IMG/VR virus record: IMGVR_UViG_3300015245_000007
Location: 1 to 63,889 of that record
DNA length: 63,889 nucleotides
Origin: a virus
Reading direction: 5' to 3' (one strand)
Positions within the stretch are counted from its first letter, which is position 1. Each line of letters begins with the position of its first letter. The notes beneath the pieces were generated by a model, which was not told where the DNA came from, searched no databases, and saw only the letters and a list, made by a program, of their open reading frames with translations. Of the stretch, positions 1 through 63,889 are shown one piece after another. Both the position numbers and the translations under genes were made by a program.

Positions 1-306
1 TACGCCGGCGCCAGCGCGAAGGACGACGAAGCCAAGATCAAGCTATTGCGCACGACGGTGCTCGGCAAAGACAAGGCGGAAGTCGTCGGCGCGGTCGCGA
101 AAATGAAAATCGTCGGCCTGACGAAAAGCGCGATCGAAAGCGGATACGACAAGGCAGAGCAGCGCGTCGACTGGTACGGCAACCCGAATAGCATTTGGGG
201 TTTCAACGGTGGCCTGACTGAAGTTGCGCGCGACCTTCCGAACGGTGACGAGCGCAACGTGCTCGAGCTCGCCGCCGGCGAGATCATGGAGAAGGTCGCG
301 GCCTGA
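1..306 (+). CDS. DUF932-family protein, C-terminal segment (ORF wraps the circular junction; N-terminal part is 63031..63889)
   Basis: Frame open from base 1 to TGA 304-306; bases 1-22 equal 63868-63889 and keep the frame (..LVRYAGASAK|DDEAKIKLL..). Confidence 0.8.
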   Translation, partial: YAGASAKDDEAKIKLLRTTVLGKDKAEVVGAVAKMKIVGLTKSAIESGYDKAEQRVDWYGNPNSIWGFNGGLTEVARDLPNGDERNVLELAAGEIMEKVAA

Positions 307-5567: not shown

Positions 5568-6124
5568 CAGTGCGGGAGCTTCGAACCAGGCGGCTTGGGC
5601 TCATCGCCCCGCATGCGCACCACCGAACCGCCGCGTATGCTGTCGTCAATCGTCTTGTTCTGCTCGGCAAGCTTCTTTGCCCATTCCTCCCGCGGCATGC
5701 CGGGCGGGGGCTGCTGCTCGGGGGACTCGACCGCACCCGTCGCGGTCTGGTCTGCGCCGCCTTCGCCGCCTTCGTCGTTATCACCCCCGCGCTCGCCGGC
5801 CTTGCGCTCGCTCTGTTCGGCCCTTGCATCGGCGAACATGTCTTGCGGACAGAGATCGTCTAGCCCGACCTTTATGCGCGCGTCGTCAAACGACTCGAGC
5901 CAGGCATAGAGCGCGGCGCCGTCCATCTTGCGCAGCTTCTGCATGATCTTGGCAACGCCGCGGTGGATGTTCTGGGTTTCTTCGGCCGTCTTGACCAGCT
6001 CGCCGAGCGATCCGGTTGCTGATTGAGCCTTCGCTTTGAAGGCGTCCATCTTGTCGAGATGTTTCGACCAAGTGTCTGCACTCGGCAGCTTCGTTGGTGT
6101 TTTCGGGCTCGCGCGTTCTGCCAT
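5567..6124 (-). CDS. hypothetical protein (acidic, low-complexity centre)
   Basis: ATG 6124 with AGGAG SD 9 nt upstream; TGATG overlap with ruvC-like start. Confidence 0.6.
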   Translation of the reverse strand: MAERASPKTPTKLPSADTWSKHLDKMDAFKAKAQSATGSLGELVKTAEETQNIHRGVAKIMQKLRKMDGAALYAWLESFDDARIKVGLDDLCPQDMFADARAEQSERKAGERGGDNDEGGEGGADQTATGAVESPEQQPPPGMPREEWAKKLAEQNKTIDDSIRGGSVVRMRGDEPKPPGSKLPH

Positions 6125-6373
6125 GGCCTGGCGCTCCTGTTCGAGGTGACGCGGGTACGCGGTGTAAGACGCCGGCCGGGTGACAAACTTGGAAGAAAGC
6201 ACCCGGCCGGACGCTGCGCATGGCCGGTGGGGACCATGCGCCGCAACCGTTCGCGGGGACTATGCGAGGGCTGCGGAGAGCCAGCGTGACGCCGAATCGC
6301 TTCGGGCGCCAGCATCAGGCAAAAGGAATGTTGAAACGTCCCCATTTTGAACGCCGCCCCACGCGGCGCGGTA

Positions 6374-6640
6374 TCAGGCAGATTTCTTCAGCTTTGCCGG
6401 CCGCTGCACACCGAGCGGCCAATTCTCGCCGGCCGGCCAGTTATCGCCGAACCAGCGCAAGGCTTCGTCGTACTTTTCGACATTGAAGCCGCCTGTCTTG
6501 ATGCGATCGAAGAACTTCCAATCGCCCGTGGCTTTCTCGCCGATCGTCGCCGTGCTCTTGCCCGTGGCGGAGCAATAAGCACTCGAGAGCGCGACAAGAT
6601 GGCTGCGGAGAATTTCGGTCTGTGACGTCGGTTTACCCAT
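6374..6640 (-). CDS. hypothetical small protein, first gene of leftward early operon
   Basis: ATG 6640, 88 aa, non-repetitive composition; divergent from XRE gene. Confidence 0.55.
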   Translation of the reverse strand: MGKPTSQTEILRSHLVALSSAYCSATGKSTATIGEKATGDWKFFDRIKTGGFNVEKYDEALRWFGDNWPAGENWPLGVQRPAKLKKSA

Positions 6641-6686
6641 GGGGCGGGACGTTAGCCGATTTAATTCGGTGCGGTCAAGATTAGGG

Positions 6687-6715
6687 TTGCCCTACCGAAA
6701 ATTCTCGGCATAATG
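6687..6715 (+). promoter_or_regulatory. sigma70-like promoter of rightward early operon
   Basis: TTGCCC (6687-6692), 16-17 bp spacer, CATAAT/ATAATG (6709-6715); followed by hairpin GGTTGC-gtggg-GCAACC (6722-6738) and SD GAGAGGGA. Confidence 0.5.
6695..6708. promoter_or_regulatory. candidate operator, imperfect palindrome CCGAAAATTCTCGG inside the promoter spacer
   Basis: CCGA-N6-TCGG, 12/14 self-complementary; same half-sites recur at 56339, 56541, 58859, 62639. Confidence 0.5.
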
Positions 6716-6754
6716 CGCCCTGGTTGCGTGGGGCAACCTGAGAGGGACATTCAC

Positions 6755-7165
6755 ATGCAACGCGAAAAGGCGCGCGGCGCCACCATTGATCGGGCCTATT
6801 TGGTCCAGATCGGAAACCGGCTCAGAGCATCGCGCATGCAGAGAGGCATTTCCCAAAGTGCGCTCGGCAAGCTACTCGACGTCACCTTTCAGCAAGTGCA
6901 AAAATACGAGAAGGGCACCAATCAAATGCCGATCTCGTCAATCCGCCAAGCAGCGAGCGGTCTTGATACCACCGTTTCCTATCTGCTCGGCCTCGATGCC
7001 GAGCAGGCCGCGGCGAGCAAGCGTCAACTCGCAATCGAGCGTATCGATAGCGTTCCGCACGGCCAGGCTGCCCTCGATACACTTTGGAAGTTGACCATAG
7101 TGCCCGATCACGGCCGCGAGTTCGCGCGTCTTTGCCGGATCATCGCGGCTTTCATCCAAGAGTAA
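6755..7165 (+). CDS. XRE-family HTH transcriptional regulator (repressor candidate)
   Basis: ISQSALGKLLDVTFQQVQKYEKGTNQMPISS is a classic HTH_3 pattern; ATG 6755 behind SD GAGAGGGA. Confidence 0.75.
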   Translation: MQREKARGATIDRAYLVQIGNRLRASRMQRGISQSALGKLLDVTFQQVQKYEKGTNQMPISSIRQAASGLDTTVSYLLGLDAEQAAASKRQLAIERIDSVPHGQAALDTLWKLTIVPDHGREFARLCRIIAAFIQE

Positions 7166-7194
7166 TCCACCCGAACATTAAGGGAGACCGATAT

Positions 7195-7548
7195 ATGACT
7201 AACGCGAATGGAAACGACGCGCCGCTCGGCGCGCGCACCGGCCAACAGCAGGAAGAGCAGAAGCGCAACGAACTGACCAATGTCGACGCGATCACCAATC
7301 ATGCCAGCGGCGTATTGGAAAACGTCGCGGTGGCGACCGTCCAGCAGATCGATTCACTTATCGGCAGGCTGCAGGCGATGCGCCTCGAGCTGCTCACCGA
7401 TGTCGCCCGGGTTCGCGCCACCATCCGGGGCCACTTGACGCTCGCCGATCAATTCGGCGCGTCGGTGAATATCATCGGCGAGAGCATCGATAAGCTGCGC
7501 GCCGACAATGCGCGCCTGGTCGACAACGCCAAACATGAGGAAGCATAA
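7195..7548 (+). CDS. hypothetical protein (helical)
   Basis: ATG 7195 with AGGGAG SD at 7181-7186. Confidence 0.6.
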   Translation: MTNANGNDAPLGARTGQQQEEQKRNELTNVDAITNHASGVLENVAVATVQQIDSLIGRLQAMRLELLTDVARVRATIRGHLTLADQFGASVNIIGESIDKLRADNARLVDNAKHEEA

Positions 7549-7551
7549 GCC

Positions 7552-8898
7552 ATGATGGGCGATTTTGACGACGTCCCGCAGCAGGCCGCGCCGCCGCCTG
7601 CAGGATCATCGCGCGGTGGCGAGGTGTTGCCGCCACTGCCGGAAAACCTGCCCGCCGTCATCACAACCGACGTCGTGTTGGCCGAACGGCCGGTCATCAC
7701 CGCGCAGCTCGTCTATCAACCCGGCGGACCGGAGGCGATCATTGCCCGCCTCGAGGCCGAGGTGCGCGCCTTCAAGGGCGACATTTCAACGGAGAAGGGG
7801 CGCGGAGAAATCAAGTCGCTCGCGCACAAGGTCTCGCGCACCAAATCGCTGCTCGACGAAATGGGCAAAGAGCTGACGGAGGGATGGAAGAAAGCCGCGA
7901 AGGTGGTCGACGTCGACCGCAAGAAAATCCGCGATCGCCTCGATGCGCTGCGCGATGAAGCGCGCAAGCCGGTCGACGATTGGGAAGAGTACGAGGAAAA
8001 ACGGATTCAGGGTCACCGCGATGCGCTCACGGTCCTCGAGGATCTCGGAGTCTTCACGTTCGGCGACGATGCCGAGCCGACAGCCAAGATGGTTCACGAT
8101 CGCATCGCAGTGATTGAGGAATTGCCGGCGCGCGACTGGCAAGAGTTTTCAACTCAGGTCGCCGATCGCAGGGCCGCTCTGCTCTTGAACCTTGGCGGCA
8201 TGCTCAAGCGCGCCCAGAAACGCGAGTCAGACGCTGCGGAGCTCGCGGAGCTGCGCCGCCAACAGGCGCAGCGTGCGGCCGATGAAGAGGCAGCGCGCGC
8301 CGCAGCCGAAGCCGCGCGGATCGCGGAAGAGCAGCGCCTGGCCGCCGAACAGGAAGCGGAGCGCGTGCGCCTCGCCGAAGAGCAGCGCCAGCGCGAAGAA
8401 GCCGAGCGCATTCGCGTTGCGGCCGAAGAGGCGCGGATCGCTGCAGAGCAAGCCGCCGCCGCGGAGGCCGAGCGCGTGCGGCTCGCCAATGAGACCGCCG
8501 CCCGCGAAGCGGCGGAACGCGCCGAGGCCGCGCAGGCCGAACGCGATCGCGTGGTCGAGGCGGAACGTCAGCGCCTCGAGCGCGAGCGCGTCGCGGCCGT
8601 CGAAGCGCAGCAAGCCGCGATCGCGAAAGCCGAAGAGAATCGCATCGCCGGCGAGAAGGCCGCGGCGGCGGCGGCGCAAAAAGCGATCGACGACGAACGC
8701 GCGCGCGTTGCCGCTGACCAAGTGCGCGAGAACCAGGCTGCGCTCGATCGCGAGAAGAACAAGCAGCACAACGCGAAAATCAACGGCGAGGTTCTCGCCG
8801 CGCTCCAGCAGCACGCGGGCCTGACGAAAGACGGCGCGAAGGCCGTCGTCGTCGCGATCGCGCAAGGCAAGATCGCTCACACCAAAATCAGTTATTGA
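7552..8898 (+). CDS. coiled-coil protein (DUF1351-like N-terminal half, TolA-like E/A/R-rich repeats)
   Basis: 448 aa; sits directly upstream of exonuclease/RecT as DUF1351 proteins do; EAERVRLAEEQRQREEAERIR.. repeats. Confidence 0.5.
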   Translation: MMGDFDDVPQQAAPPPAGSSRGGEVLPPLPENLPAVITTDVVLAERPVITAQLVYQPGGPEAIIARLEAEVRAFKGDISTEKGRGEIKSLAHKVSRTKSLLDEMGKELTEGWKKAAKVVDVDRKKIRDRLDALRDEARKPVDDWEEYEEKRIQGHRDALTVLEDLGVFTFGDDAEPTAKMVHDRIAVIEELPARDWQEFSTQVADRRAALLLNLGGMLKRAQKRESDAAELAELRRQQAQRAADEEAARAAAEAARIAEEQRLAAEQEAERVRLAEEQRQREEAERIRVAAEEARIAAEQAAAAEAERVRLANETAAREAAERAEAAQAERDRVVEAERQRLERERVAAVEAQQAAIAKAEENRIAGEKAAAAAAQKAIDDERARVAADQVRENQAALDREKNKQHNAKINGEVLAALQQHAGLTKDGAKAVVVAIAQGKIAHTKISY

Positions 8899-8899
8899 A

Positions 8900-9097
8900 A
8901 TGATGAAATGGACCTGGCGCGCCGCCGACGCGATCGCCACCGCAACGCCCGGCAGCGTCGCCATTGAAACCGGCAAGGCGACAATCCTCATGACGCCCGA
9001 CGCCGCGGAGGCGGTCGGCGCGATGATGATTGCCGCCGCCTACGTCTCCCGCTCGATGCAGACCACCGTTCCAGAGGAAAAGAAATCCGATGCCTGA
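8900..9097 (+). CDS. hypothetical small protein
   Basis: ATG 2 nt after upstream stop; 65 aa; 8-nt overlap with exonuclease start. Confidence 0.45.
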   Translation: MMKWTWRAADAIATATPGSVAIETGKATILMTPDAAEAVGAMMIAAAYVSRSMQTTVPEEKKSDA

Positions 9098-10040
9098 CCC
9101 AACACGCGAGTCAATCTCCGCGACCGAAACGCCGGCGCTCTTTAACGCCTCGCCCTATCTCACGAAGCGCATGCTGTACGAGCGCATTGCGAACGGAGTC
9201 GATATCGACTCCCCGGAAAACAACCGCATGGATTGGGGCAAGCGCATGCAGGGCGTCTTGCTGCAGGCAGCGGCCGAGGATCACAAGCTCGACGTCCTGC
9301 CGAACATCGGATCGGACGGAAAGGAAGTCTATATCCGCCGCGGCCGCATCGGCTGCACGCGCGATGCCGTGATCATCGATCCGCAGCGCGGGCCTGGCGC
9401 GCTGGAAATCAAGATGTGCAACGACTATCGCGTATGGCGCGAGAGTTGGGGCTCGGGCGCCACTCCGCCGCGCCACAACGAAGTGCAGCTTCAGCAGCAA
9501 ATCATGGTCGGCGATGGCGTGACGCCATTCACCTGGGGACTGCTCGGCTGTTGGATCGCCGGCGAAATGAAATACTGGAAGCGCGAGCCGATGCCACGCC
9601 TTTGGGCGCAGATCGAAAAAGAGACGACGCAGTTTTATGAGGACGTCGCCGCCAAGAAGGCGCCCGATTGGATCGGCGACCCGGTGGAAATGCCGCTGCT
9701 CACCGAGCTGTTCCCGCCGCGCTTCGCGAAGGTGACGGACTTCACAACGCGCGATGACGCCGAGAAGCTCGCCGAAAAGTGCCTGATGCTCAACTATCAC
9801 AGCAAAGAGCGGCTCGGGCACGCGAAGGCCGAAGATAAATTGAAGGCGGAGTTGCGCGCGCTCCTGCTCGATGCCGAAGAAGGCCGCTTCATTCACGGGA
9901 TCAAGTTCACCGTCAAGCAGTCCGACCGCAAGGGCTATATGGTCCCCGCCGGCAAGACGACGCGCACCGATCTGTATGTGCCGGACGACGTGCCGCGCGG
10001 CAATATCGCTAAAGACTTCACCGCAGACCTTGGAGGCTGA
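9090..10040 (+). CDS. YqaJ/lambda-Exo-like recombination exonuclease (PD-(D/E)xK)
   Basis: ETPALFNASPY..MDWGKRMQ..ALEIKMC pattern; immediately upstream of RecT. Confidence 0.65.
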   Translation: MPDPTRESISATETPALFNASPYLTKRMLYERIANGVDIDSPENNRMDWGKRMQGVLLQAAAEDHKLDVLPNIGSDGKEVYIRRGRIGCTRDAVIIDPQRGPGALEIKMCNDYRVWRESWGSGATPPRHNEVQLQQQIMVGDGVTPFTWGLLGCWIAGEMKYWKREPMPRLWAQIEKETTQFYEDVAAKKAPDWIGDPVEMPLLTELFPPRFAKVTDFTTRDDAEKLAEKCLMLNYHSKERLGHAKAEDKLKAELRALLLDAEEGRFIHGIKFTVKQSDRKGYMVPAGKTTRTDLYVPDDVPRGNIAKDFTADLGG

Positions 10041-47135: not shown

Positions 47136-47184
47136 CGTTTCCGCAATCGCCGAATATCTTCGGTACATCACAGAGAGGTGCACC

Positions 47185-47580
47185 ATGGGACGCAGGCCGA
47201 GCCTGACAGACGAACAGAAAGATCTGATCGCGGAATTGCGCGAGGGCCGCGGGTGGTCCTACGCGCGGATCGCCATCAAGCTCAAGATCGCCGAAGGTTC
47301 GGTCTCTTGGTATTGCTTGAAGCAAGGCATCGAGAAGCCAGGCCGCAAAATTCCGGTCCTGCGGCAACCGCAAACAAAGCCCTTCACCCGGCACGGCCGA
47401 ACGGTGCGGCCATTCTCGCCGGAAGAGGACGCGAAGATGCTCGAGCTCTCCGCCGAGGGTCTCAAGCCAGCGGCGATCGCGCGCGCGCTCGGCAATCGCC
47501 GACCGAACAGCATCACCGGCCGGCTCTACACGCTGGCGCGACACCAGGACCGCGCGGATGCATCCCAGGGAATAGGATGA
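47185..47580 (+). CDS. DNA-binding protein: Hin-like HTH + GcrA-like segment
   Basis: GWSYARIAIKLKIAEGSV HTH; FSPEEDAKMLELSAEGLKPAAIARALGNRRPNSITGRLYTL resembles the GcrA N-domain; AGAGAGG SD. Confidence 0.5.
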   Translation: MGRRPSLTDEQKDLIAELREGRGWSYARIAIKLKIAEGSVSWYCLKQGIEKPGRKIPVLRQPQTKPFTRHGRTVRPFSPEEDAKMLELSAEGLKPAAIARALGNRRPNSITGRLYTLARHQDRADASQGIG

Positions 47581-54299: not shown

Positions 54300-54755
54300 T
54301 TAAACCTTTGTCGGGAAGATGGAAAAATCCCTGCGGCGCTCGTCAAGCAGCGGAACGCCGCGACGTGCGGCTTCCTTTTCAAGCAGCCTCACTCCGCTGT
54401 CGTTGGTCTCGCACCCGGCGATGATAAACTTGGCGCCGATGCCGATACGCGTAAAATCAAATTCCTTGCCGATGCCCTTGAGCATTTCCTCGAGAGCCAG
54501 GCGCGGGATTTGGATCATCACGACGGGGACGCCGTCGCCTGTGCCTTCCGGGATCACTGCGAACACCGGCTTGCGATTGATGGCAGCGGCGCCGCCTTCA
54601 GCCTCGCGCGTGAGACCGATGCCATGCATGTCGATCGTGCCATCGCTTGCAAACGCTTGATCGTATCCGGCAACGCGCAGCTTGCCGGCGATCTCATCAT
54701 AGGTGCCGGGCGAAACTTCCAGCTCGGCATAGGTGTGGGTCTGGCGCAGTGTCAT
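54300..54755 (-). CDS. hypothetical protein
   Basis: ATG 54755 with GGAGG SD; 151 aa. Confidence 0.5.
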   Translation of the reverse strand: MTLRQTHTYAELEVSPGTYDEIAGKLRVAGYDQAFASDGTIDMHGIGLTREAEGGAAAINRKPVFAVIPEGTGDGVPVVMIQIPRLALEEMLKGIGKEFDFTRIGIGAKFIIAGCETNDSGVRLLEKEAARRGVPLLDERRRDFSIFPTKV

Positions 54756-54858
54756 GGCGATCGCCTCCGGTTGAGGCGCGCAGCGTATCCGCACCGAAAT
54801 TATTCGGCAAGTGTGGAATAGATCAATTCGGCCATGGCGAGCGCGACGAAGGCCGCGA

Positions 54859-56311: not shown

Positions 56312-56334
56312 CGTTGCAGCATGCCATTGCCGAT

Positions 56335-56358
56335 TATTTTCGGCAATGCTAATCTGCG
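56335..56358. promoter_or_regulatory. perfect palindrome CATTGCCGA-ttattt-TCGGCAATG (operator/bidirectional promoter candidate)
   Basis: 9-bp arms; contains GCCGA-N6-TCGGC; TTGCCG -35-like hexamers readable on both strands. Confidence 0.55.
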
Positions 56359-56533
56359 CGCGATCGCGGATGCCGGTGAGACTCTGAGAGCCCCGGCGCT
56401 GCGGTCACGATCGGCCGGCGAGACCCCGTGTTTGCGCGTCCTGAACATGACGGCTAGGAGGCAGCGCGCAAGTGAACGAGGCCGGCGCCCGCGGGTTTCC
56501 TCTCACCGGCTCATCTTGCCGGCCGATCACCTC

Positions 56534-56580
56534 TTGCATCGCCGATAATATTCGGTCACCCTGCGCCGGTCGGGTGAAAC
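56534..56580 (+). promoter_or_regulatory. promoter-like element with GCCGA-N6-TCGGT operator and downstream hairpin
   Basis: CACCTCTTGCAT (the same CACCTCTTGC precedes the 317 element), GCCGATAATATTCGGT 56541-56556, hairpin TCACCC-N10-GGGTGA 56556-56577. Confidence 0.45.
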
Positions 56581-56830
56581 GCCGTTTGTGGATGCGGTCT
56601 GTGTGCGCACCGCTCTATAGCCGGCGAAAATCGGTGCTGCTCGGAGCGCCTGTGCCCCTCTCAACCGCCGGAGCTGCGCGCACTGCGGCACCGGCGGGGA
56701 GTTTCAGACGCGGGCCTGAGTGAGAGTGCCCCCTCCCCTGCGCACCCGCAGGGGTTCAAGCTCAGGCGCGCTGGCCGCGCGAGCGCCGTCGACCAACCCC
56801 GGGTCGGCGGCGTTCGTGTCTCGAGGGACC

Positions 56831-57127
56831 ATGATCAGCGATAGCGCCAGCCGTCTCGGCCTCTTGCCCTATGAGCGCGTCGTGCTCGAGGTGTTCTGCA
56901 TCAACGAGCCTCTATGCCGCCGCGAGGTGCACCAGCTCGCCGGCTACTCCGAGGGGACATGCAGTCGTGCCATGGCGAAGCTTCGGCGAATCGGGTTGCT
57001 CGAGCGAACGCAGTTCGGGCGGTTCAACTGTCCATGGACGGCGACCGATCGCGGCAAGATCGCGTTCGCCCTCATCGCCGGTCGCGAATTGATACGGCGC
57101 AATGCGCGCCGCAGACAGCCCGCATAA
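56831..57127 (+). CDS. MarR-like winged-helix DNA-binding protein
   Basis: LLPYERVVLEV..REVHQLAGYSEGTCSRAMAKLRRIGLLER; GAGGGA SD. Confidence 0.55.
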   Translation: MISDSASRLGLLPYERVVLEVFCINEPLCRREVHQLAGYSEGTCSRAMAKLRRIGLLERTQFGRFNCPWTATDRGKIAFALIAGRELIRRNARRRQPA

Positions 57128-57482
57128 TTCACGCCCAAATCACGGTCAGGTCACGATAGGAACGGACGGCGAACCTGCAGTCTGGCGCTGCAGCTTGCGG
57201 ACAGGCCATGAACGCAGTCGCGCCGCCGAGCTGGTGAACAGTTCGGCGGCGCGGGGGTGGTGAACGCCGGGCTCGCCTTCTGGGTCCGCCGAGCAACACG
57301 ATCGTGCGCCGCGGCCGCGCAGCGGTCAAGCGAAGAGCTGACTTAGACCCTTCGGGCCTCGAATGAGCCCGCGAAAATTATCGCGCTCGTCATCACCGGC
57401 AGCATAACGAGCATCACACCAAGCCCGCACGCGCAGCATGCGTTTCACGTGAAAAAACCGCTCGAGGTAATCGCCAGCATTA

Positions 57483-57543
57483 CCGGGAACGATCGCAAAA
57501 ATCGTTCCCGGCAATCGTTCCCGGTTCCCGAAATCGTTCCCGG
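57483..57543. repeat. iteron cluster 2 (CCGGGAACGAT family)
   Basis: Forward copy 57483-57493 and inverted copy 57501-57511 form a palindrome around CGCAAAA; more inverted copies at 57514-57524 and 57533-57543, partial TTCCCG 57525-57530. Confidence 0.8.
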
Positions 57544-58068
57544 CATAACCTCGCACGCGCGAGCCGGCCCCAAAGCGGCCGTTCGGTTATAGGCTCTGAT
57601 GCATTGGAGATTGTAGTCTCTGGCACTCGGCGCGGAAAGAGCGAGCGCCATAGCGCGACGCGACTTTACGCGCGGTGAGAGTTAGCAAGGTGGAGAGGCT
57701 GGGTTAAAGATACCGCGCGGGGCAGTTAAGCTCAGATGTTTGAGATACTGTAGGCTGCCTGGCGTCAGCAAGAGGCGCCTAAGAGCGCTGGCGCGCGGCG
57801 CCTTTGCTTCCGCGCGTTCTACTGCTGCGCGAGGCTGATTTCTCGATTGCGCTTATTTTGATCGAAAGAGAAATCACAAGCGCGTGAGGCCGCGTTCGCG
57901 GTGCGTTCTCCGATCGCCATTTTCTCTTACGGCTGCAATAGCTCCTCGCGCGCCAGCGCGTCGCGATCGGCCCGGGATTTGCCCGACATTCACCGGCGCC
58001 AGGTGGTCAAAAGGGGTTGACAGGTTTCCGGCCCCGACCGGGAACGGAGAGGTTTTATATCCTGCCGG

Positions 58069-58165
58069 TTGCGAAAACGAACCTATTGCAATCTTTTCAA
58101 TATTCAGGCACAAACAGATCACGGACGGCGCTGGCCGGTTCCGGACCCAAAGGGGAAAGCCTCAG
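58069..58165 (+). promoter_or_regulatory. conserved promoter/5' leader element, copy A (upstream of radC-like gene)
   Basis: TTGCGA..TTGCAA hairpin, then GGACGGCGCTGGCCGGTTCC hairpin (58123-58142), AAAGGGGAAAG SD, ATG 58166; near-identical core in copies B and C. Confidence 0.6.
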
Positions 58166-58840
58166 ATGACCCTCTCTCCCGCCCAGAAAGCCGCCGCCAC
58201 CCGCCGCGCCCGCAAGGCCGCCATGATCGCCCCCGCCCGGGCGCCCGGCCTCGCCGACGCCGGCCAGCTCGGCGACCTGGCGTTGCTGGCGACTTTCATT
58301 GGCCAGCAGGCCGACGTCTTGATCCGCGAATTTGGCACCCTCGCCGCGACCGTCGCAGCCCCGCTCGAGCGGATCGCCGAGCTGACGGGCACGACCACCG
58401 CGCGGACCGTGAAGGCGCTCGCCATGGCCGCCATCAGCGTTACCCGGGGCGAGCTCGCCGGCAAATGCTGCCTCTCCAGTTTCGCGGCCGTGACGGACTA
58501 CCTCCGGGCCTCCATGCGGACCGAAGGAACCGAGCAATTTCGCGTTCTCTTCCTGAACAAGCGCAACGAGCTGGTCGCCGACGAAGTGATGGGCGTCGGC
58601 ACGATCGACCACGTTCCGGTTTACCCGCGCGAGGTTGCCAAGCGCGCCCTGGAGCTCGGCGCCAGCGCCATCTTTCTTTCGCACAATCACCCGTCGGGCG
58701 ACCCGACGCCGTCGAGCGCCGACGTCGAAATGACCAAAGAGCTGGTCAAGGTGATGGGCGTTTTCGGGATCGCGATTTACGACCACATCATTGTCGGCCG
58801 GAACGACATCGCCTCGCTCAAGGGTCTGCGGATGATGTGA
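58166..58840 (+). CDS. radC: RadC-like JAB/MPN-domain protein
   Basis: FRVLFLNKRNELV..HVPVYPREV..AIFLSHNHPSGDPTPSSADVEMT (JAMM HxHPSG); N-terminal SPAQKAAATRRARKAA motif. Confidence 0.8.
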   Translation: MTLSPAQKAAATRRARKAAMIAPARAPGLADAGQLGDLALLATFIGQQADVLIREFGTLAATVAAPLERIAELTGTTTARTVKALAMAAISVTRGELAGKCCLSSFAAVTDYLRASMRTEGTEQFRVLFLNKRNELVADEVMGVGTIDHVPVYPREVAKRALELGASAIFLSHNHPSGDPTPSSADVEMTKELVKVMGVFGIAIYDHIIVGRNDIASLKGLRMM

Positions 58841-58850
58841 AAAATAAGGT

Positions 58851-58928
58851 TTGCGTTCGCCGATAAAACTCGGCACACTATCCACCTGGGACGGCATAGG
58901 CCGGCCCCCACTCCGAAGGGAAAAGACC
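58851..58928 (+). promoter_or_regulatory. conserved promoter/5' leader element, copy B
   Basis: TTGCGT, GCCGA-taaaac-TCGGC (58859-58874), GGGACGGCATAGGCCGGCCCCC (58888-58909), CACTCCGAAGGGAAAAG SD, ATG 58929. Confidence 0.6.
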
Positions 58929-59465
58929 ATGACGACGACAGCCCCCGAAATGAACGCCGCACACAAAGCCTGGGCGACGCGCCGCGCCCGCGCCGCGGCC
59001 GCCGCGCTGATGACCAGCGTTGCAGCGATGCCGGCACCAGCGCCGGTCGAGGCCAAGCCCGCCGGCGTGCACAACGTCCACACCTCCGCGGATCTGGTCG
59101 GCATCGGCGCCGTTGCGCCCGTGATCTTTCGCGGCACGCAAGCTGTGACTGACTGCCAGCTCGTCGAGATCAGCGTCGACGATTCGGCCGTCGGCTCCGG
59201 CCGCCGCCTCTTCGTCGTGCTCGAGGAAGGCGATAAAATGGTTCGGCTGTTCTCGCCGGCAAAGCTCGTCACGATCACGGTCGACCGAAAGTATTTCGAC
59301 AAATACGGCTACTGGCCGGCGCGCGGCGTGAAGCGCTCGCGCGTCGCCGAGATCATCCGCCGCAACATCGCGCTCGCCGACAAGATCAACGCGGCCAAGC
59401 TCGAGGACGCGGTATCCGACGGCGGCGCGGACGCGGTCGCCGCGCTCCAGCTCCTGGAAGGGTGA
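58929..59465 (+). CDS. hypothetical protein with N-terminal AHKAWATRRARAAAA motif
   Basis: ATG 58929 behind leader B; 178 aa. Confidence 0.6.
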   Translation: MTTTAPEMNAAHKAWATRRARAAAAALMTSVAAMPAPAPVEAKPAGVHNVHTSADLVGIGAVAPVIFRGTQAVTDCQLVEISVDDSAVGSGRRLFVVLEEGDKMVRLFSPAKLVTITVDRKYFDKYGYWPARGVKRSRVAEIIRRNIALADKINAAKLEDAVSDGGADAVAALQLLEG

Positions 59466-59468
59466 GCC

Positions 59469-59705
59469 ATGTCGATTTATCGCAACGTGCTCCAGATGGA
59501 AGTCCGCGCCTCGAGCGGTGATGCAGCGGCGGGCGGCTTTATCGCCGCCTGCCACAGTGGCAACGACGTCCTGACGTGCCGATGGGTCTATGGCCATCCA
59601 CATGAGTGGAAGATCAACGGCAAGATCGTGACCCGGCCGGCGGCCGCGTTGTGGCTCACCGATACGTGGCCAGCGCGCAAGGCAACATGGGGGTTGACGT
59701 CATGA
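59469..59705 (+). CDS. hypothetical protein
   Basis: 78 aa, 3 nt after upstream stop. Confidence 0.45.
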   Translation: MSIYRNVLQMEVRASSGDAAAGGFIAACHSGNDVLTCRWVYGHPHEWKINGKIVTRPAAALWLTDTWPARKATWGLTS

Positions 59706-59911
59706 GAGCGCCCACGATTTCCGAAACCGGCGCGCGCGCGTATCGCGCCGGCATACCGGCATCCGGAAACCCGTTCGCGATCGGCTCGCAGGCGCGCACG
59801 CTCTGGGCGCGCGGCTGGCGCGAAGCGAAAACCGAGGCGGCGATCGCCGCGGCCGGTCGCGCGCTTGACACTTCGCTCGCCGCCACCCGCCGCGCCGTGC
59901 GGAGGCGGTGA
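59702..59911 (+). CDS. Rmf/CrpP-fold-like small protein
   Basis: AYRAGIPASGNPFAIGSQARTLWARGWREAK resembles the Rmf/CrpP pattern; ATGA coupling. Confidence 0.45.
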   Translation: MRAPTISETGARAYRAGIPASGNPFAIGSQARTLWARGWREAKTEAAIAAAGRALDTSLAATRRAVRRR

Positions 59912-62370: not shown

Positions 62371-62564
62371 CGCCAGAACAACAAGCCGCATATGTCATCG
62401 CGCAGGCAGCTTGCGCGATGGCGGAGATCGCCGGCATGCAAGCTGAAAACCAGATGTGCGCTCTTCGGGGCGAACCGCTCGCCTATGGCGAGGGTGCATT
62501 CACCTCAGTGATCGAGCGGAATTGCATCCACCACAACGGCGTGCTGACCCTCTTTCGGTCATGA
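62367..62564 (+). CDS. hypothetical small protein
   Basis: ATGA coupling; 65 aa. Confidence 0.45.
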   Translation: MTPEQQAAYVIAQAACAMAEIAGMQAENQMCALRGEPLAYGEGAFTSVIERNCIHHNGVLTLFRS

Positions 62565-62630
62565 AGATTTAAAGGCCAAAGGTGAGAAAACGATCCTGTA
62601 AAATAAATTGGCGCCCGCGGTCGAATTGAC

Positions 62631-62709
62631 TTGCGGTCGCCGAGTTTATTCGGCAATCTCTTTTCACAGGGACGGCGCTGGCCGGTCCCCACTCCAGAGG
62701 GAAGCCCGA
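62631..62709 (+). promoter_or_regulatory. conserved promoter/5' leader element, copy C
   Basis: TTGCGG, GCCGA-gtttat-TCGGC (62639-62654), GGGACGGCGCTGGCCGGTCCCC (62669-62690), CACTCCAGAGGGAAG SD, ATG 62710. Confidence 0.6.
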
Positions 62710-62988
62710 ATGTCTAGCTCATTCTCCGTTAACGTCCATGTCGACTACCAGGTCACACCGGCCGGCCAGTCGGTGCAGGTTGTCGCCGGGTACGACATTA
62801 ACCGTTATCCGGGTGCGGGTACCGGCAGCGTGATTGTCGGCCGCAAAATCAATCCCTCGAAGAAAACCCCTTGGGGCGCCCAAGTCGAAGAGCTTTGGGA
62901 AACTCAAGAGGAAGCGCAGGCGGCGGCCGATCGTGCCAACGCCGGAAACTGCGAGGGCATCGCCTTCGCCTCCTACAGCGACGACTGA
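62710..62988 (+). CDS. hypothetical protein
   Basis: ATG 62710 behind leader C; 92 aa. Confidence 0.55.
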   Translation: MSSSFSVNVHVDYQVTPAGQSVQVVAGYDINRYPGAGTGSVIVGRKINPSKKTPWGAQVEELWETQEEAQAAADRANAGNCEGIAFASYSDD

Positions 62989-63030
62989 CCCTCACTTTCA
63001 TCACTCACACACACACCAGGAACCACGATC

Positions 63031-63889
63031 ATGAACACGACCACCACCACCCGCCCCCGCTCCGTCCGCGCCAGCGGCACGACTTTGACGCAGGCCAACG
63101 CGCAGTGGGAAAGCCGCCCGGCCGATCAGCGTTTCGGCTCGCTCGCCGCCATGCTGGCGGTTGCCGACCACGACAAGACGACGGCGACCGTCGCCGAGAT
63201 CAAGGCCAACGCGCTGCGCGCCATCGCACGCGGTCCCGACATCGCGATCGAAGGCGAGGGCATTATGGGCGGCGCGCTCACGAATTGGAGCTTTGGCCAG
63301 CTCGCGCATATCGCCAAAGCGCCGGCCGCCTATCTGCGCACGCTGTCGCCGAAGCTCGCGGCGGCTGCCATCAACGAAGGCCTCGACAAGCACGCCGACG
63401 CCTACACGCAAGAGGATGGCGAGGGCCGCCAGCTTCTGTTTTCCGGCAAGGGCAAAGACCTGACCGCGCGCGCCATCACCTCGCAGAAATACGGCCGCGT
63501 CTGGAATGTGGACTTGATCCGCGAGCTGATGAAGCTCGAGGCCTCGGGCCCGTGGCAGCCCGCGCCGGAGGCCTTCGACGGCTCGCGCGGCTTGTACCTC
63601 GGCGATCGCGACATGTTCGCTTTCATGGTCGATAACGAGCGCCGCATATTCGAGACCGACAAGGGCGGCGGCCTCGGCCGCGGATTCTTCCTGACGAACA
63701 ACGAAGTCGGCGGCGGCGCCTTCAACATTCTGTCATTCCTCTACGAGTATGTTTGCGGCAATCACCGAGTCTGGGGCGCGCAGCAAATCGAAGAGACGCG
63801 CGTGATCCACATCGGCGGCGGCCGTCACGAGAAGGTGCTCGAGACGCTCGGCCGCGAGCTGGTACGCTACGCCGGCGCCAGCGCGAAGG
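63031..63889 (+). CDS. DUF932-family (phage/plasmid-like) protein, N-terminal segment; continues at 1..306
   Basis: ATG 63031 behind CACACACACC-AGGAACCA; ..WSFGQLA..YGRVWN..GLYLGDRDMFAFMV..GFFLTNNEVGGGAF.. typical of DUF932; no stop before the window end. Confidence 0.75.
   Translation, partial: MNTTTTTRPRSVRASGTTLTQANAQWESRPADQRFGSLAAMLAVADHDKTTATVAEIKANALRAIARGPDIAIEGEGIMGGALTNWSFGQLAHIAKAPAAYLRTLSPKLAAAAINEGLDKHADAYTQEDGEGRQLLFSGKGKDLTARAITSQKYGRVWNVDLIRELMKLEASGPWQPAPEAFDGSRGLYLGDRDMFAFMVDNERRIFETDKGGGLGRGFFLTNNEVGGGAFNILSFLYEYVCGNHRVWGAQQIEETRVIHIGGGRHEKVLETLGRELVRYAGASAK

Follow-up and report, generated by a model that had tools for sequence, protein, structure and literature searches.

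Three putative promoter-operator-leader cassettes of private sequence in front of early genes of an uncultured siphovirus-like phage, distinct from the radC RNA motif

Introduction

Lambdoid CI/Cro regulons combine palindromic operators that lie over the -35 or -10 element at several promoters with paired sites in a divergent region beside the gene of the HTH regulator. A lambda-type nut site comprises a boxB hairpin with a GNRA-like pentaloop, a boxA, and a cognate N protein. Stem-loops at the 5' terminus of an mRNA, in turn, protect it against RNase E.

Regulatory sequences that recur in front of several genes of one phage genome have been described in two other settings. The PeSL cassettes of T4-type phages are multi-copy and intergenic, and are found in early regions (Arbiol et al. 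2010, PMC2839356; PMC4122927). They run from the upstream stop codon through a host-type -35, a stem-loop, a -10, and a Shine-Dalgarno (SD) sequence to the next start codon, the stem-loop being placed mostly between -35 and -10 (PMC2839356). Features expected of PeSL are also a large number of copies, involvement in recombination or modular shuffling, and termination of transcription by the stem-loop. The SAS/ESAS elements of Cluster K mycobacteriophages have a 13-bp consensus, GGGATAGGAGCCC, located 3-8 bp before start codons, and occur in 11-19 copies whose function is still unknown (Pope et al. 2011, PMC3203893). A further candidate for comparison is the radC RNA motif (RF01754), which is listed for Proteobacteria (Weinberg et al. 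2010, PMC2864571). A member of this family is expected in the 5' UTR of radC or of another gene for DNA processing.

This study concerns a viral DNA of 63,889 nucleotides, here referred to as the window, in which a preliminary description had reported four copies (A to D) of a conserved promoter plus structured 5' leader and had likened their gene context to that of the radC RNA motif. The membership and architecture of this family, a palindrome that it has in common with other promoter-like sites, and its counterparts in related phages are presented, and the possible explanations are weighed.

Results

The phage genome and its host

The first 22 nt of the window are identical to its last 22 nt, so that it represents a complete circular contig of 63,867 bp. 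The genome is that of a siphovirus-like, GC-rich phage (GC ~63%) with zero tRNA genes. Its largest ORF codes for a 1099-aa tail protein; genes for a portal, a large terminase, a tape-measure protein, a DnaB-like helicase, and RecT- and ParB-like proteins are present too. The closest cultured phages are Brevundimonas siphoviruses (portal identity 44%), and a homologue of one early gene is held by a Bradyrhizobium prophage, from which it follows that the host is probably alphaproteobacterial. One near-identical contig, L201, was present in an ENA metagenome, and a 7.9-kb region gave no megablast match in GenBank phages.

Three paralogous copies precede early genes

The sequences in front of the start codons at 58166, 58929, and 62710 are indeed nearly the same: the three strings quoted in the preliminary description are exact, and each ends at the ATG. 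The string GGACGGCNNNGGCCGG has three exact matches in the window versus 0.03 expected from shuffles, and in all three copies it lies 38-43 nt upstream of the start codon. A covariance model of the segment from hairpin 2 to the ATG, built from A, B, and C, scored these at 56.6-63 bits, the next site in the window reaching 18.4 bits. This runner-up site appears unrelated. In the gene calls on L201, no intergenic gap of the plus-strand gene block is larger than the three taken up by A, B, and C; from the RadC-like gene onward the block is otherwise densely packed. The parts of the three copies are as follows.

58086-58091, plus strand: copy A, putative -35 TTGCAA (from the MAFFT alignment; N17 to CACAAA)
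58092-58108: copy A, spacer, in which only a decayed right operator arm, TCAGGCA, remains
58109-58114, plus strand: copy A, putative -10 CACAAA, weak relative to the E. coli consensus
58123-58142, plus strand: copy A, hairpin 2, GGACGGC-GCTG-GCCGGTTCC, 8 nt past the putative -10
58150-58168, plus strand: copy A, SD AAGGGGAA and ATG of the RadC-like gene (58166-58840)
58851-58856, plus strand: copy B, putative -35 TTGCGT, 10 nt past the RadC stop codon
58860-58873: copy B, putative operator palindrome CCGATAAAACTCGG (formerly 'hairpin 1'), occupying the promoter spacer
58874-58879, plus strand: copy B, putative -10 CACACT
58888-58908, plus strand: copy B, hairpin 2, GGGACGGC-ATAG-GCCGGCCCC, 8 nt past the putative -10
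58916-58931, plus strand: copy B, SD AAGGGAA and ATG of a 178-aa gene (58929-59465)
62631-62636, plus strand: copy C, putative -35 TTGCGG (from the MAFFT alignment)
62640-62653: copy C, putative operator palindrome CCGAGTTTATTCGG in the spacer, also terminator-like (T-rich run after it)
62654-62659, plus strand: copy C, putative -10 CAATCT
62669-62689, plus strand: copy C, hairpin 2, GGGACGGC-GCTG-GCCGGTCCC, 9 nt past the putative -10
62696-62712, plus strand: copy C, SD AGAGGGAA and ATG of a 92-aa gene (62710-62988)

In the MAFFT alignment the first hexamer sits at the place expected of a -35, in agreement with a family of conserved promoters plus leaders. A TTGCGN hexamer had been ascribed to every copy, which is right for B (TTGCGT) and C (TTGCGG) and wrong for A, whose TTGCAA at 58086-58091 is what aligns with the TTGCGN of B and C. 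The TTGCGA at 58069, once taken as the hexamer of copy A, is not the homologue of the B and C hexamers, and the TTGC/GCAA 'stem' of that copy has no homologue in B or C. Conservation between B and C comes in blocks: the -35, both arms of the palindrome, the stems of the hairpin, a CCACTCC, and the SD are kept, and the palindrome centre, the linker from -10 to hairpin, the loop, and the spacer from SD to ATG have diverged. This pattern argues for selection on the stems, CCACUCC, and SD, and disfavours a recent duplication.

The family has three members, not four. The supposed copy D, a 13-bp stem (317-347) whose start lies 11 nt from the preceding stop codon (304-306) and which folds far better than shuffles (z = -5.6), shares no block with A to C; it has neither hairpin 2 nor the palindrome and gave no match to the leader model. 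In the collections searched, the leader was found in two contigs only, namely the window and the near-identical L201.

Promoter-like elements

Compared with the E. coli consensus, the hexamers of A to C match poorly (~3/6 each), and a sigma-70 consensus scan did not call them. The hexamer pair and its spacing nevertheless recur at eight sites in the window and, with good -10 boxes, in related phages. In the latter, TTGCGG precedes a perfect TATAAT -10, or the near-consensus TTATAA/TATAAC, at the same position, by which TTGCGN becomes readable as a -35. On this sequence basis, A to C are regarded as putative promoters with a putative transcription start.

A palindrome at eight promoter-like sites and a candidate XRE regulator

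The 14-mer CCGA-W6-TCGG occurs at eight sites in the window versus 0.42 expected, each time in a promoter-like context shortly 5' of a gene start. Six of the eight have the order -35, 2-3 nt, palindrome, -10; at the other two (54794 and 56330) the palindrome covers the last three bases of the -35. The sites, all putative operators, and the regulator gene beside two of them are listed here.

6656-6669, minus strand: palindrome in the spacer of promoter-like TTGACC-N17-CTAACG; gene 6374-6640 downstream
6695-6708, plus strand: palindrome in the spacer of TTGCCC...CATAAT; followed by hairpin GGTTGCgtggGGCAACC, SD, and ATG at 6752 (XRE gene)
6752-7165, plus strand: XRE-family HTH regulator, candidate binder of the palindrome (Pfam HTH_3, 3.2e-8; PHROG transcriptional regulator/repressor families)
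47150-47163, plus strand: palindrome between CCGCAA and TACATC, the latter adjoining it; followed by SD and ATG at 47185 (HTH protein)
54794-54807, minus strand: palindrome overlapping the -35 of TTGCCG-N17-TACGCT; ATG at 54754
56330-56343, plus strand: palindrome overlapping the -35 of TTGCCG-N17-TAATCT in the divergent region 56327-56720, toward the ORF at 56720
56542-56555, plus strand: palindrome in the spacer of TTGCAT-N17-CACCCT, toward the ORF at 56720
58860, plus strand (copy B): palindrome between TTGCGT and CACACT; gene 58929-59465
62640, plus strand (copy C): palindrome between TTGCGG and CAATCT; gene 62710-62988

The hairpin GGTTGCgtggGGCAACC that follows the site at 6695 differs from hairpin 2 of A to C.

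In B and C this palindrome had been described as a first hairpin that keeps its shape while its sequence changes, as a structure under selection would. The arms of B and C are, however, identical (GCCGA/TCGGC), only the centre differing, and the element of A is non-homologous. What had looked like covariation is a sequence-conserved DNA palindrome at eight sites, some of them without a leader hairpin. The sites at 6656 and 6695 stand back to back in a divergent region beside the gene of the XRE-family protein (137 aa), so that an over-represented palindrome over promoter elements and sites beside an HTH gene, as in a repressor-operator regulon, are found together. From this placement, CCGA-W6-TCGG is more likely a repressor operator acting as DNA than an RNA stem, a reading that explains the conserved arms and the freely varying AT-rich centre, and the phage XRE-type regulator (6752-7165) is the most likely candidate to bind it. 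The next best homologue of this regulator is only 51% identical over 57% of the protein, and the homologues are too distant for an operator co-variation test. The palindrome of copy C resembles a weak intrinsic terminator, which leaves room for a role of the palindrome at the RNA level. A pattern of -35 plus operator of the B/C type gave 120 matches in GTDB genomes, each belonging to a conserved motif in the coding sequence of an unrelated gene.

Hairpin 2 and the leader

Hairpin 2 begins 7-9 nt past the putative -10 in all three copies, so that it would lie at about position +1 to +3, close to where the mRNA begins. Its four inner pairs, CGGC/GCCG, are invariant across A, B, and C; the outer pairs include one G-U and two mismatches, and the loops are GCUG (A), AUAG (B), and GCUG (C). 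It is the sole structure predicted in all three copies, in transcripts from the inferred start and in read-through transcripts alike. A selected RNA structure found no statistical support in hairpin 2: covariation among A to C was not significant (172 of 500 shuffles scored as high), and folding energies equalled those of shuffles, with z-scores of -0.9 to +0.6 that are uninformative in such GC-rich sequence.

A CUCC...AGGGA segment of the leader had also been suggested as a possible means of occluding the SD. This comes down to a 3-bp helix adjoining the SD, with a single double change (U-A to C-G), and the predicted partner of the SD differs among A, B, and C; SD sequestration was rejected on account of this inconsistent pairing, the SD being half-accessible in the predicted folds. 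The operator-bearing promoters at 47150, 54794, and 6656 are without a leader hairpin, and the hairpin is thus no general requirement.

Some further candidates were set aside. Promoters of a phage RNA polymerase, including N4-type hairpin promoters, were rejected in view of the lack of such a polymerase in the window, and a single-stranded DNA (Frpo-like) promoter, a REP/MITE, or a tRNA are contradicted by the size of the element, its number of copies, its constant place ahead of start codons, and the zero tRNA count.

Related phages have the same design with other sequences

The search with the 178-aa gene product found ten homologues; the comparison covers the loci of seven of these, together with L201 as the locus of the protein of the window itself. 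In every lineage a different multi-copy hairpin precedes the SD, with the promoter, or else the stop codon of the upstream gene, on its other side: GGCCCnnnGGGCC in L205; GGGCnnTAGACCC, then GCCACGAAGGAG, in L206, L213, and L214; GGGGCAnCGCCCC in L207 and L215; and GGGCAnnnTGCCC, adjoining GGGAGA, in at least six copies in L202. Spacer palindromes are found as well, e.g., TACGC-N5-GCGTA in L205 and GGACC-N3-GGTCC in L202. As to the promoter elements, TTGCGG lies 17-18 nt upstream of TATAAT or TTATAA/TATAAC in L206 and L215, TTGCGG and TTGACG lie 16-17 nt upstream of TACTCT and TAATCT in L205, and TTTACA lies upstream of TATATT/TAAATT in L213 and L214. Some leader hairpins of L202, L207, and L215 have no recognisable promoter ahead of them and come after a stop codon or a strong hairpin instead. 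Gene order around the cassettes is shuffled among the distant relatives, and their NusG, GcrA, CSD, and S24 repressor homologues are absent from the window. It appears from the equal design with other sequences that the architecture is kept in this group of phages and that the sequence of A to C is private to one phage.

Searches for the radC RNA motif

No family of Rfam 15 reached its gathering score anywhere in the window, and a search for RF01754 at E<=10 in 57900-59000 (A and B) and 62400-62900 (C) returned no match and nothing credible. The check with the Rfam radC covariance model that the preliminary description had proposed was therefore negative at either threshold over the leaders, and with it the identification as the radC RNA motif falls. 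The reported gene context of radC, DNA methyltransferase, and DUF932 is partly correct: the product of the gene at 58166 is RadC-like (PF04002, 1.4e-39) and a C-5 DNA methylase is encoded downstream of it; Pfam at E<=0.01 finds no DUF932, and the proteins encoded after B and C are without a family hit.

Searches from the leader outwards gave the same picture. The leader model was run on both strands of viral contigs, over as much as ~6 kb on each flank of 80 RadC homologues, and found nothing credible, the best E-value being 0.005 with alignments unlike A to C. In IMG/VR, a loose core pattern gave at least 120 matches, all by chance within coding sequence, and an extended pattern gave 0; the extended pattern gave four chance matches in JGI metagenomes. 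A recurrence with covariation across Proteobacteria, as for a motif of the radC type, was thus not seen in these viral and metagenome scans, which yielded chance matches only. The gene-2 and gene-C proteins had no relatives in IMG/VR, nor gene-2 in GenBank phages.

Discussion

On balance, A to C are probably paralogous early promoter-operator-5' UTR-RBS cassettes, repressed at the spacer palindrome and stabilised or insulated by the leader hairpin. Such a cassette would begin with a weak host-type promoter (-35 TTGCNN, a 17-nt spacer, -10 CAnnnT/A) and continue, after 7-9 nt, with hairpin 2, which is short, rich in GC, and placed at the start of the mRNA or close to it; then would come 8 nt, the SD AGGGA, and the ATG. 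In B and C the spacer would be taken up by the 14-bp operator CCGA-W6-TCGG, common to six other promoter-like sites, at which the XRE-type regulator would block RNA polymerase; copy A would have lost the left arm of this operator. In the RNA, hairpin 2 would be a 5'-proximal stem-loop that protects the transcript from 5'-end-dependent decay and keeps the RBS free of upstream context, and, judged from its position, a role as mRNA stabiliser or RBS insulator is the most likely one.

The layout of B and C matches that of PeSL almost part for part: the stem-loop lies in the spacer between -35 and -10 (GCCGA-N6-TCGGC; absent from A), the cassette reaches from after the upstream stop codon to the downstream SD and start codon, and gene order around the cassettes is shuffled in the relatives of this phage. 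The two differ in that the stem-loop of the spacer is here an AT-centred palindrome, conserved in sequence and found at eight sites and beside an XRE regulator, by which an operator becomes likelier than a terminator, in that a second hairpin lies downstream of the -10, and in that only three copies are present in a siphovirus-like, GC-rich phage. The likeness to SAS/ESAS is of a more general kind: in each case a phage-specific conserved sequence stands right before the start codon of a number of genes that are not related, is itself directly preceded by an inverted repeat with a variable spacer, and has a consensus that varies between phage subgroups. This resemblance is an analogy only, as A to C are unrelated to GGGATAGGAGCCC, number three rather than 11-19, belong to a phage of another host phylum, and are tied to recognisable promoter and putative operator parts. 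By sequence or host, A to C belong to neither PeSL nor SAS/ESAS. A palindrome over the -35 or -10 of several promoters, with paired divergent sites beside an HTH gene, is also reminiscent of the CI/Cro regulons, except that the putative operator sequence and the candidate regulator here are without close relatives.

Among the other explanations, it is unlikely that the elements are intercistronic modules for RNA processing or stabilisation with no promoters. B and C would then lie on one long operon transcribed from upstream, with cleavage by RNase E in the AU-rich stretch that links the two hairpins; the upstream mRNA would have its 3' end guarded by the palindrome hairpin, and the downstream mRNA its 5' end by hairpin 2. 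The start of B only 10 nt past the RadC stop codon, the tight packing of the genes from A to C, the AU-rich linkers ACACUAUCCACCU and AAUCUCUUUUCACA, the terminator-like palindrome of copy C, and the promoterless leader hairpins after a stop codon or strong hairpin in L202, L207, and L215 are all consistent with such processing. They have to be set against a palindrome that is conserved in sequence, beyond mere shape, and that is found on both strands and in divergent regions, always placed relative to -35/-10-like hexamers; moreover, copy A has hairpin 2, yet ~1 kb upstream of it is without a gene.

That hairpin 2 and CCACUCC together form the RNA site of a phage protein, either a translational repressor or a lambda-N-like antiterminator that would bring A, B, and C under common post-transcriptional or anti-termination control, is quite improbable. 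Such a site would account for stems that are conserved in sequence with loops that vary, both here and per related lineage, each with its own hairpin; in addition, the products of A and B are among several early proteins that start with an arginine-rich motif, SPAQKAWxTRRARAAA, which we take to resemble the arginine-rich peptides of lambdoid N proteins. This motif, however, does not track the leader hairpins in the relatives, and the product of C is without it. Nor do the parts of a lambda-type nut site assemble here: the loops are the tetraloops GCUG and AUAG, with GNRA-like pentaloops absent, the leaders have no visible boxA-like sequence, and searches of the window turned up no antiterminator, no N, NusG, or CSD homologue, and no other protein known to bind RNA.

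Very improbable, too, is that hairpin 2 acts as a second DNA operator, an imperfect palindrome GGGAC-N11-GTCCC just downstream of the start site. Its arms are conserved and its centre is variable, just as in CCGA-W6-TCGG, and the genome codes for several uncharacterised HTH proteins that could serve such an operator. The symmetry, though, is broken in A (CGGAC...GTTCC) and B (GGGAC...GCCCC), and the change in A leads to a G-U pair, which is tolerated in RNA and not as DNA symmetry; the distance and orientation to the SD are fixed, and the leader model found no further copies elsewhere in the window.

It is a long shot, to which we attach hardly more than speculative value, that the lineage-specific multi-copy leader hairpins at large are recognised as RNA by cognate factors specific to each phage. 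In this phage the hairpin concerned would be GGGACGGC/GCCGGUCCC; in the relatives, GGCCC/GGGCC, GGGC-UAGA-CCC, GGGGC/GCCCC, and GGGCA/UGCCC. Possible candidates for such factors are the arginine-rich SPAQKAWxTRRARAAA peptides with which several early proteins begin. If true, this would mean post-transcriptional control of an SAS/ESAS-like or N/boxB-like kind in a clade of alphaproteobacterial phages.

The weakest reading, that A to C are the radC RNA motif or a close variant of it, has virtually no chance of being correct: copy A does lie upstream of a RadC-like gene with a DNA methylase in the same operon, and both elements are found 5' of a radC-family gene in a mobile element, but the element here is much shorter, with a single hairpin, is confined to this phage, matches no family model in the window or leaders, has no credible counterpart around 80 RadC homologues, and in two of its three copies (B and C) precedes unrelated genes of unknown function.

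We rate A to C as a phage regulatory cassette of an already known type, with a putative repressor operator and a private sequence. For this phage, a tempting annotation as radC RNA motif is removed. What takes its place is a regulatory map of an uncultured phage, with eight promoter-like sites that have one putative operator in common, a candidate XRE regulator, and three early genes, i.e., that of the RadC-like protein and two unknowns, under a common leader. While this cassette map opens no new question, it is useful for annotating this phage group. The wider point is that each of the related phages keeps its own multi-copy leader hairpin, a parallel to the unexplained SAS/ESAS of the mycobacteriophages.

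Additional leader types and flanking elements

The leaders of this phage fall into several small families, because a second paralogous type, CACACnACAGGAACCA-N3-5-ATG, lies upstream of two genes (start 63031 and ATG 1022). The XRE gene, whose product is the candidate binder of the operator (a palindrome read as a repressor site), has a leader with a hairpin that starts 7 nt past the -10 element, is different from the one in copies A-C (the three promoter-leader cassettes), and is followed on its 3' side by an SD and the ATG. Since promoter, hairpin and SD all precede ATG 6752, the true start of ORF 6713-7165 is probably at 6752.

Leaders in the window
63000-63033 and 995-1024: second paralogous leader type, CACACnACAGGAACCA-N3-5-ATG
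6715-6754: XRE gene leader with operator-bearing promoter, hairpin GGTTGCgtggGGCAACC, SD GAGAGGGA and ATG 6752

In the distantly related phage locus L202, CCAAGGGCAnnnTGCCCGGGAGA-N4-6-ATG is present six or more times across positions 5868-10001; CCAAGGGCAnnnTGCCCGGGAGA fuses a hairpin to the SD, and a recognisable promoter is missing at some copies. Within the phage group, this set is the case most like the start-associated sequences (SAS) of Cluster K mycobacteriophages.

The 22-nt overlap between the ends of the window (1-22 and 63868-63889) identifies it as a complete circular contig, and one gene spans the junction; its 380-aa product gave no match in a Pfam search. Directly 3' of its stop codon is the GC-rich stem of copy D (z-score -5.6), which has no T-run downstream and is probably a terminator or 3' stabiliser. 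On the 5' side of copy A, the cassette of the RadC-like gene, ATCGTTCCCGG occurs three times in direct orientation and once inverted, with a further inverted copy 40 nt upstream of the putative -35 element; an iteron, an origin and a binding array of a second regulator are possible readings of these repeats.

Flanking elements in the window
63031 to 306: 380-aa junction-spanning gene, phrog_1362
317-347: copy D stem, 13 bp
57127-58166: region of about 1 kb without a called gene (notable parts 57479-57545 and 58037-58046)

Proteins of the early region

Several early proteins, unrelated to one another, carry an arginine-rich motif, (L)SPAQKAWxTRRARAAA, close to the N-terminus; the motif also appears at the DNA level as repeats D18/D19. 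Four relatives (L202, L205, L206 and L207) carry it in two proteins each, and L202 also has one occurrence close to a C-terminus. A literature search with the string SPAQKAWxTRRARAAA matched no paper. The motif resembles the arginine-rich peptides of lambdoid N.

Early-protein features in the window
58187-58230, 58965-59000 and 1055-1100: (L)SPAQKAWxTRRARAAA motif in the RadC-like protein, the 178-aa protein and ORF 964/1022
59702-59911, + strand: 69-aa RMF-like gene, PF04957 match

The latter gene shares the early operon of the RadC-like gene, and its product scores 31.8 bits against ribosome modulation factor (cutoff 27.9); the counterpart in L201, a near-identical contig, was also flagged, weakly, as a ribosome modulation factor match. 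An RMF-like protein encoded by a phage would be unusual.
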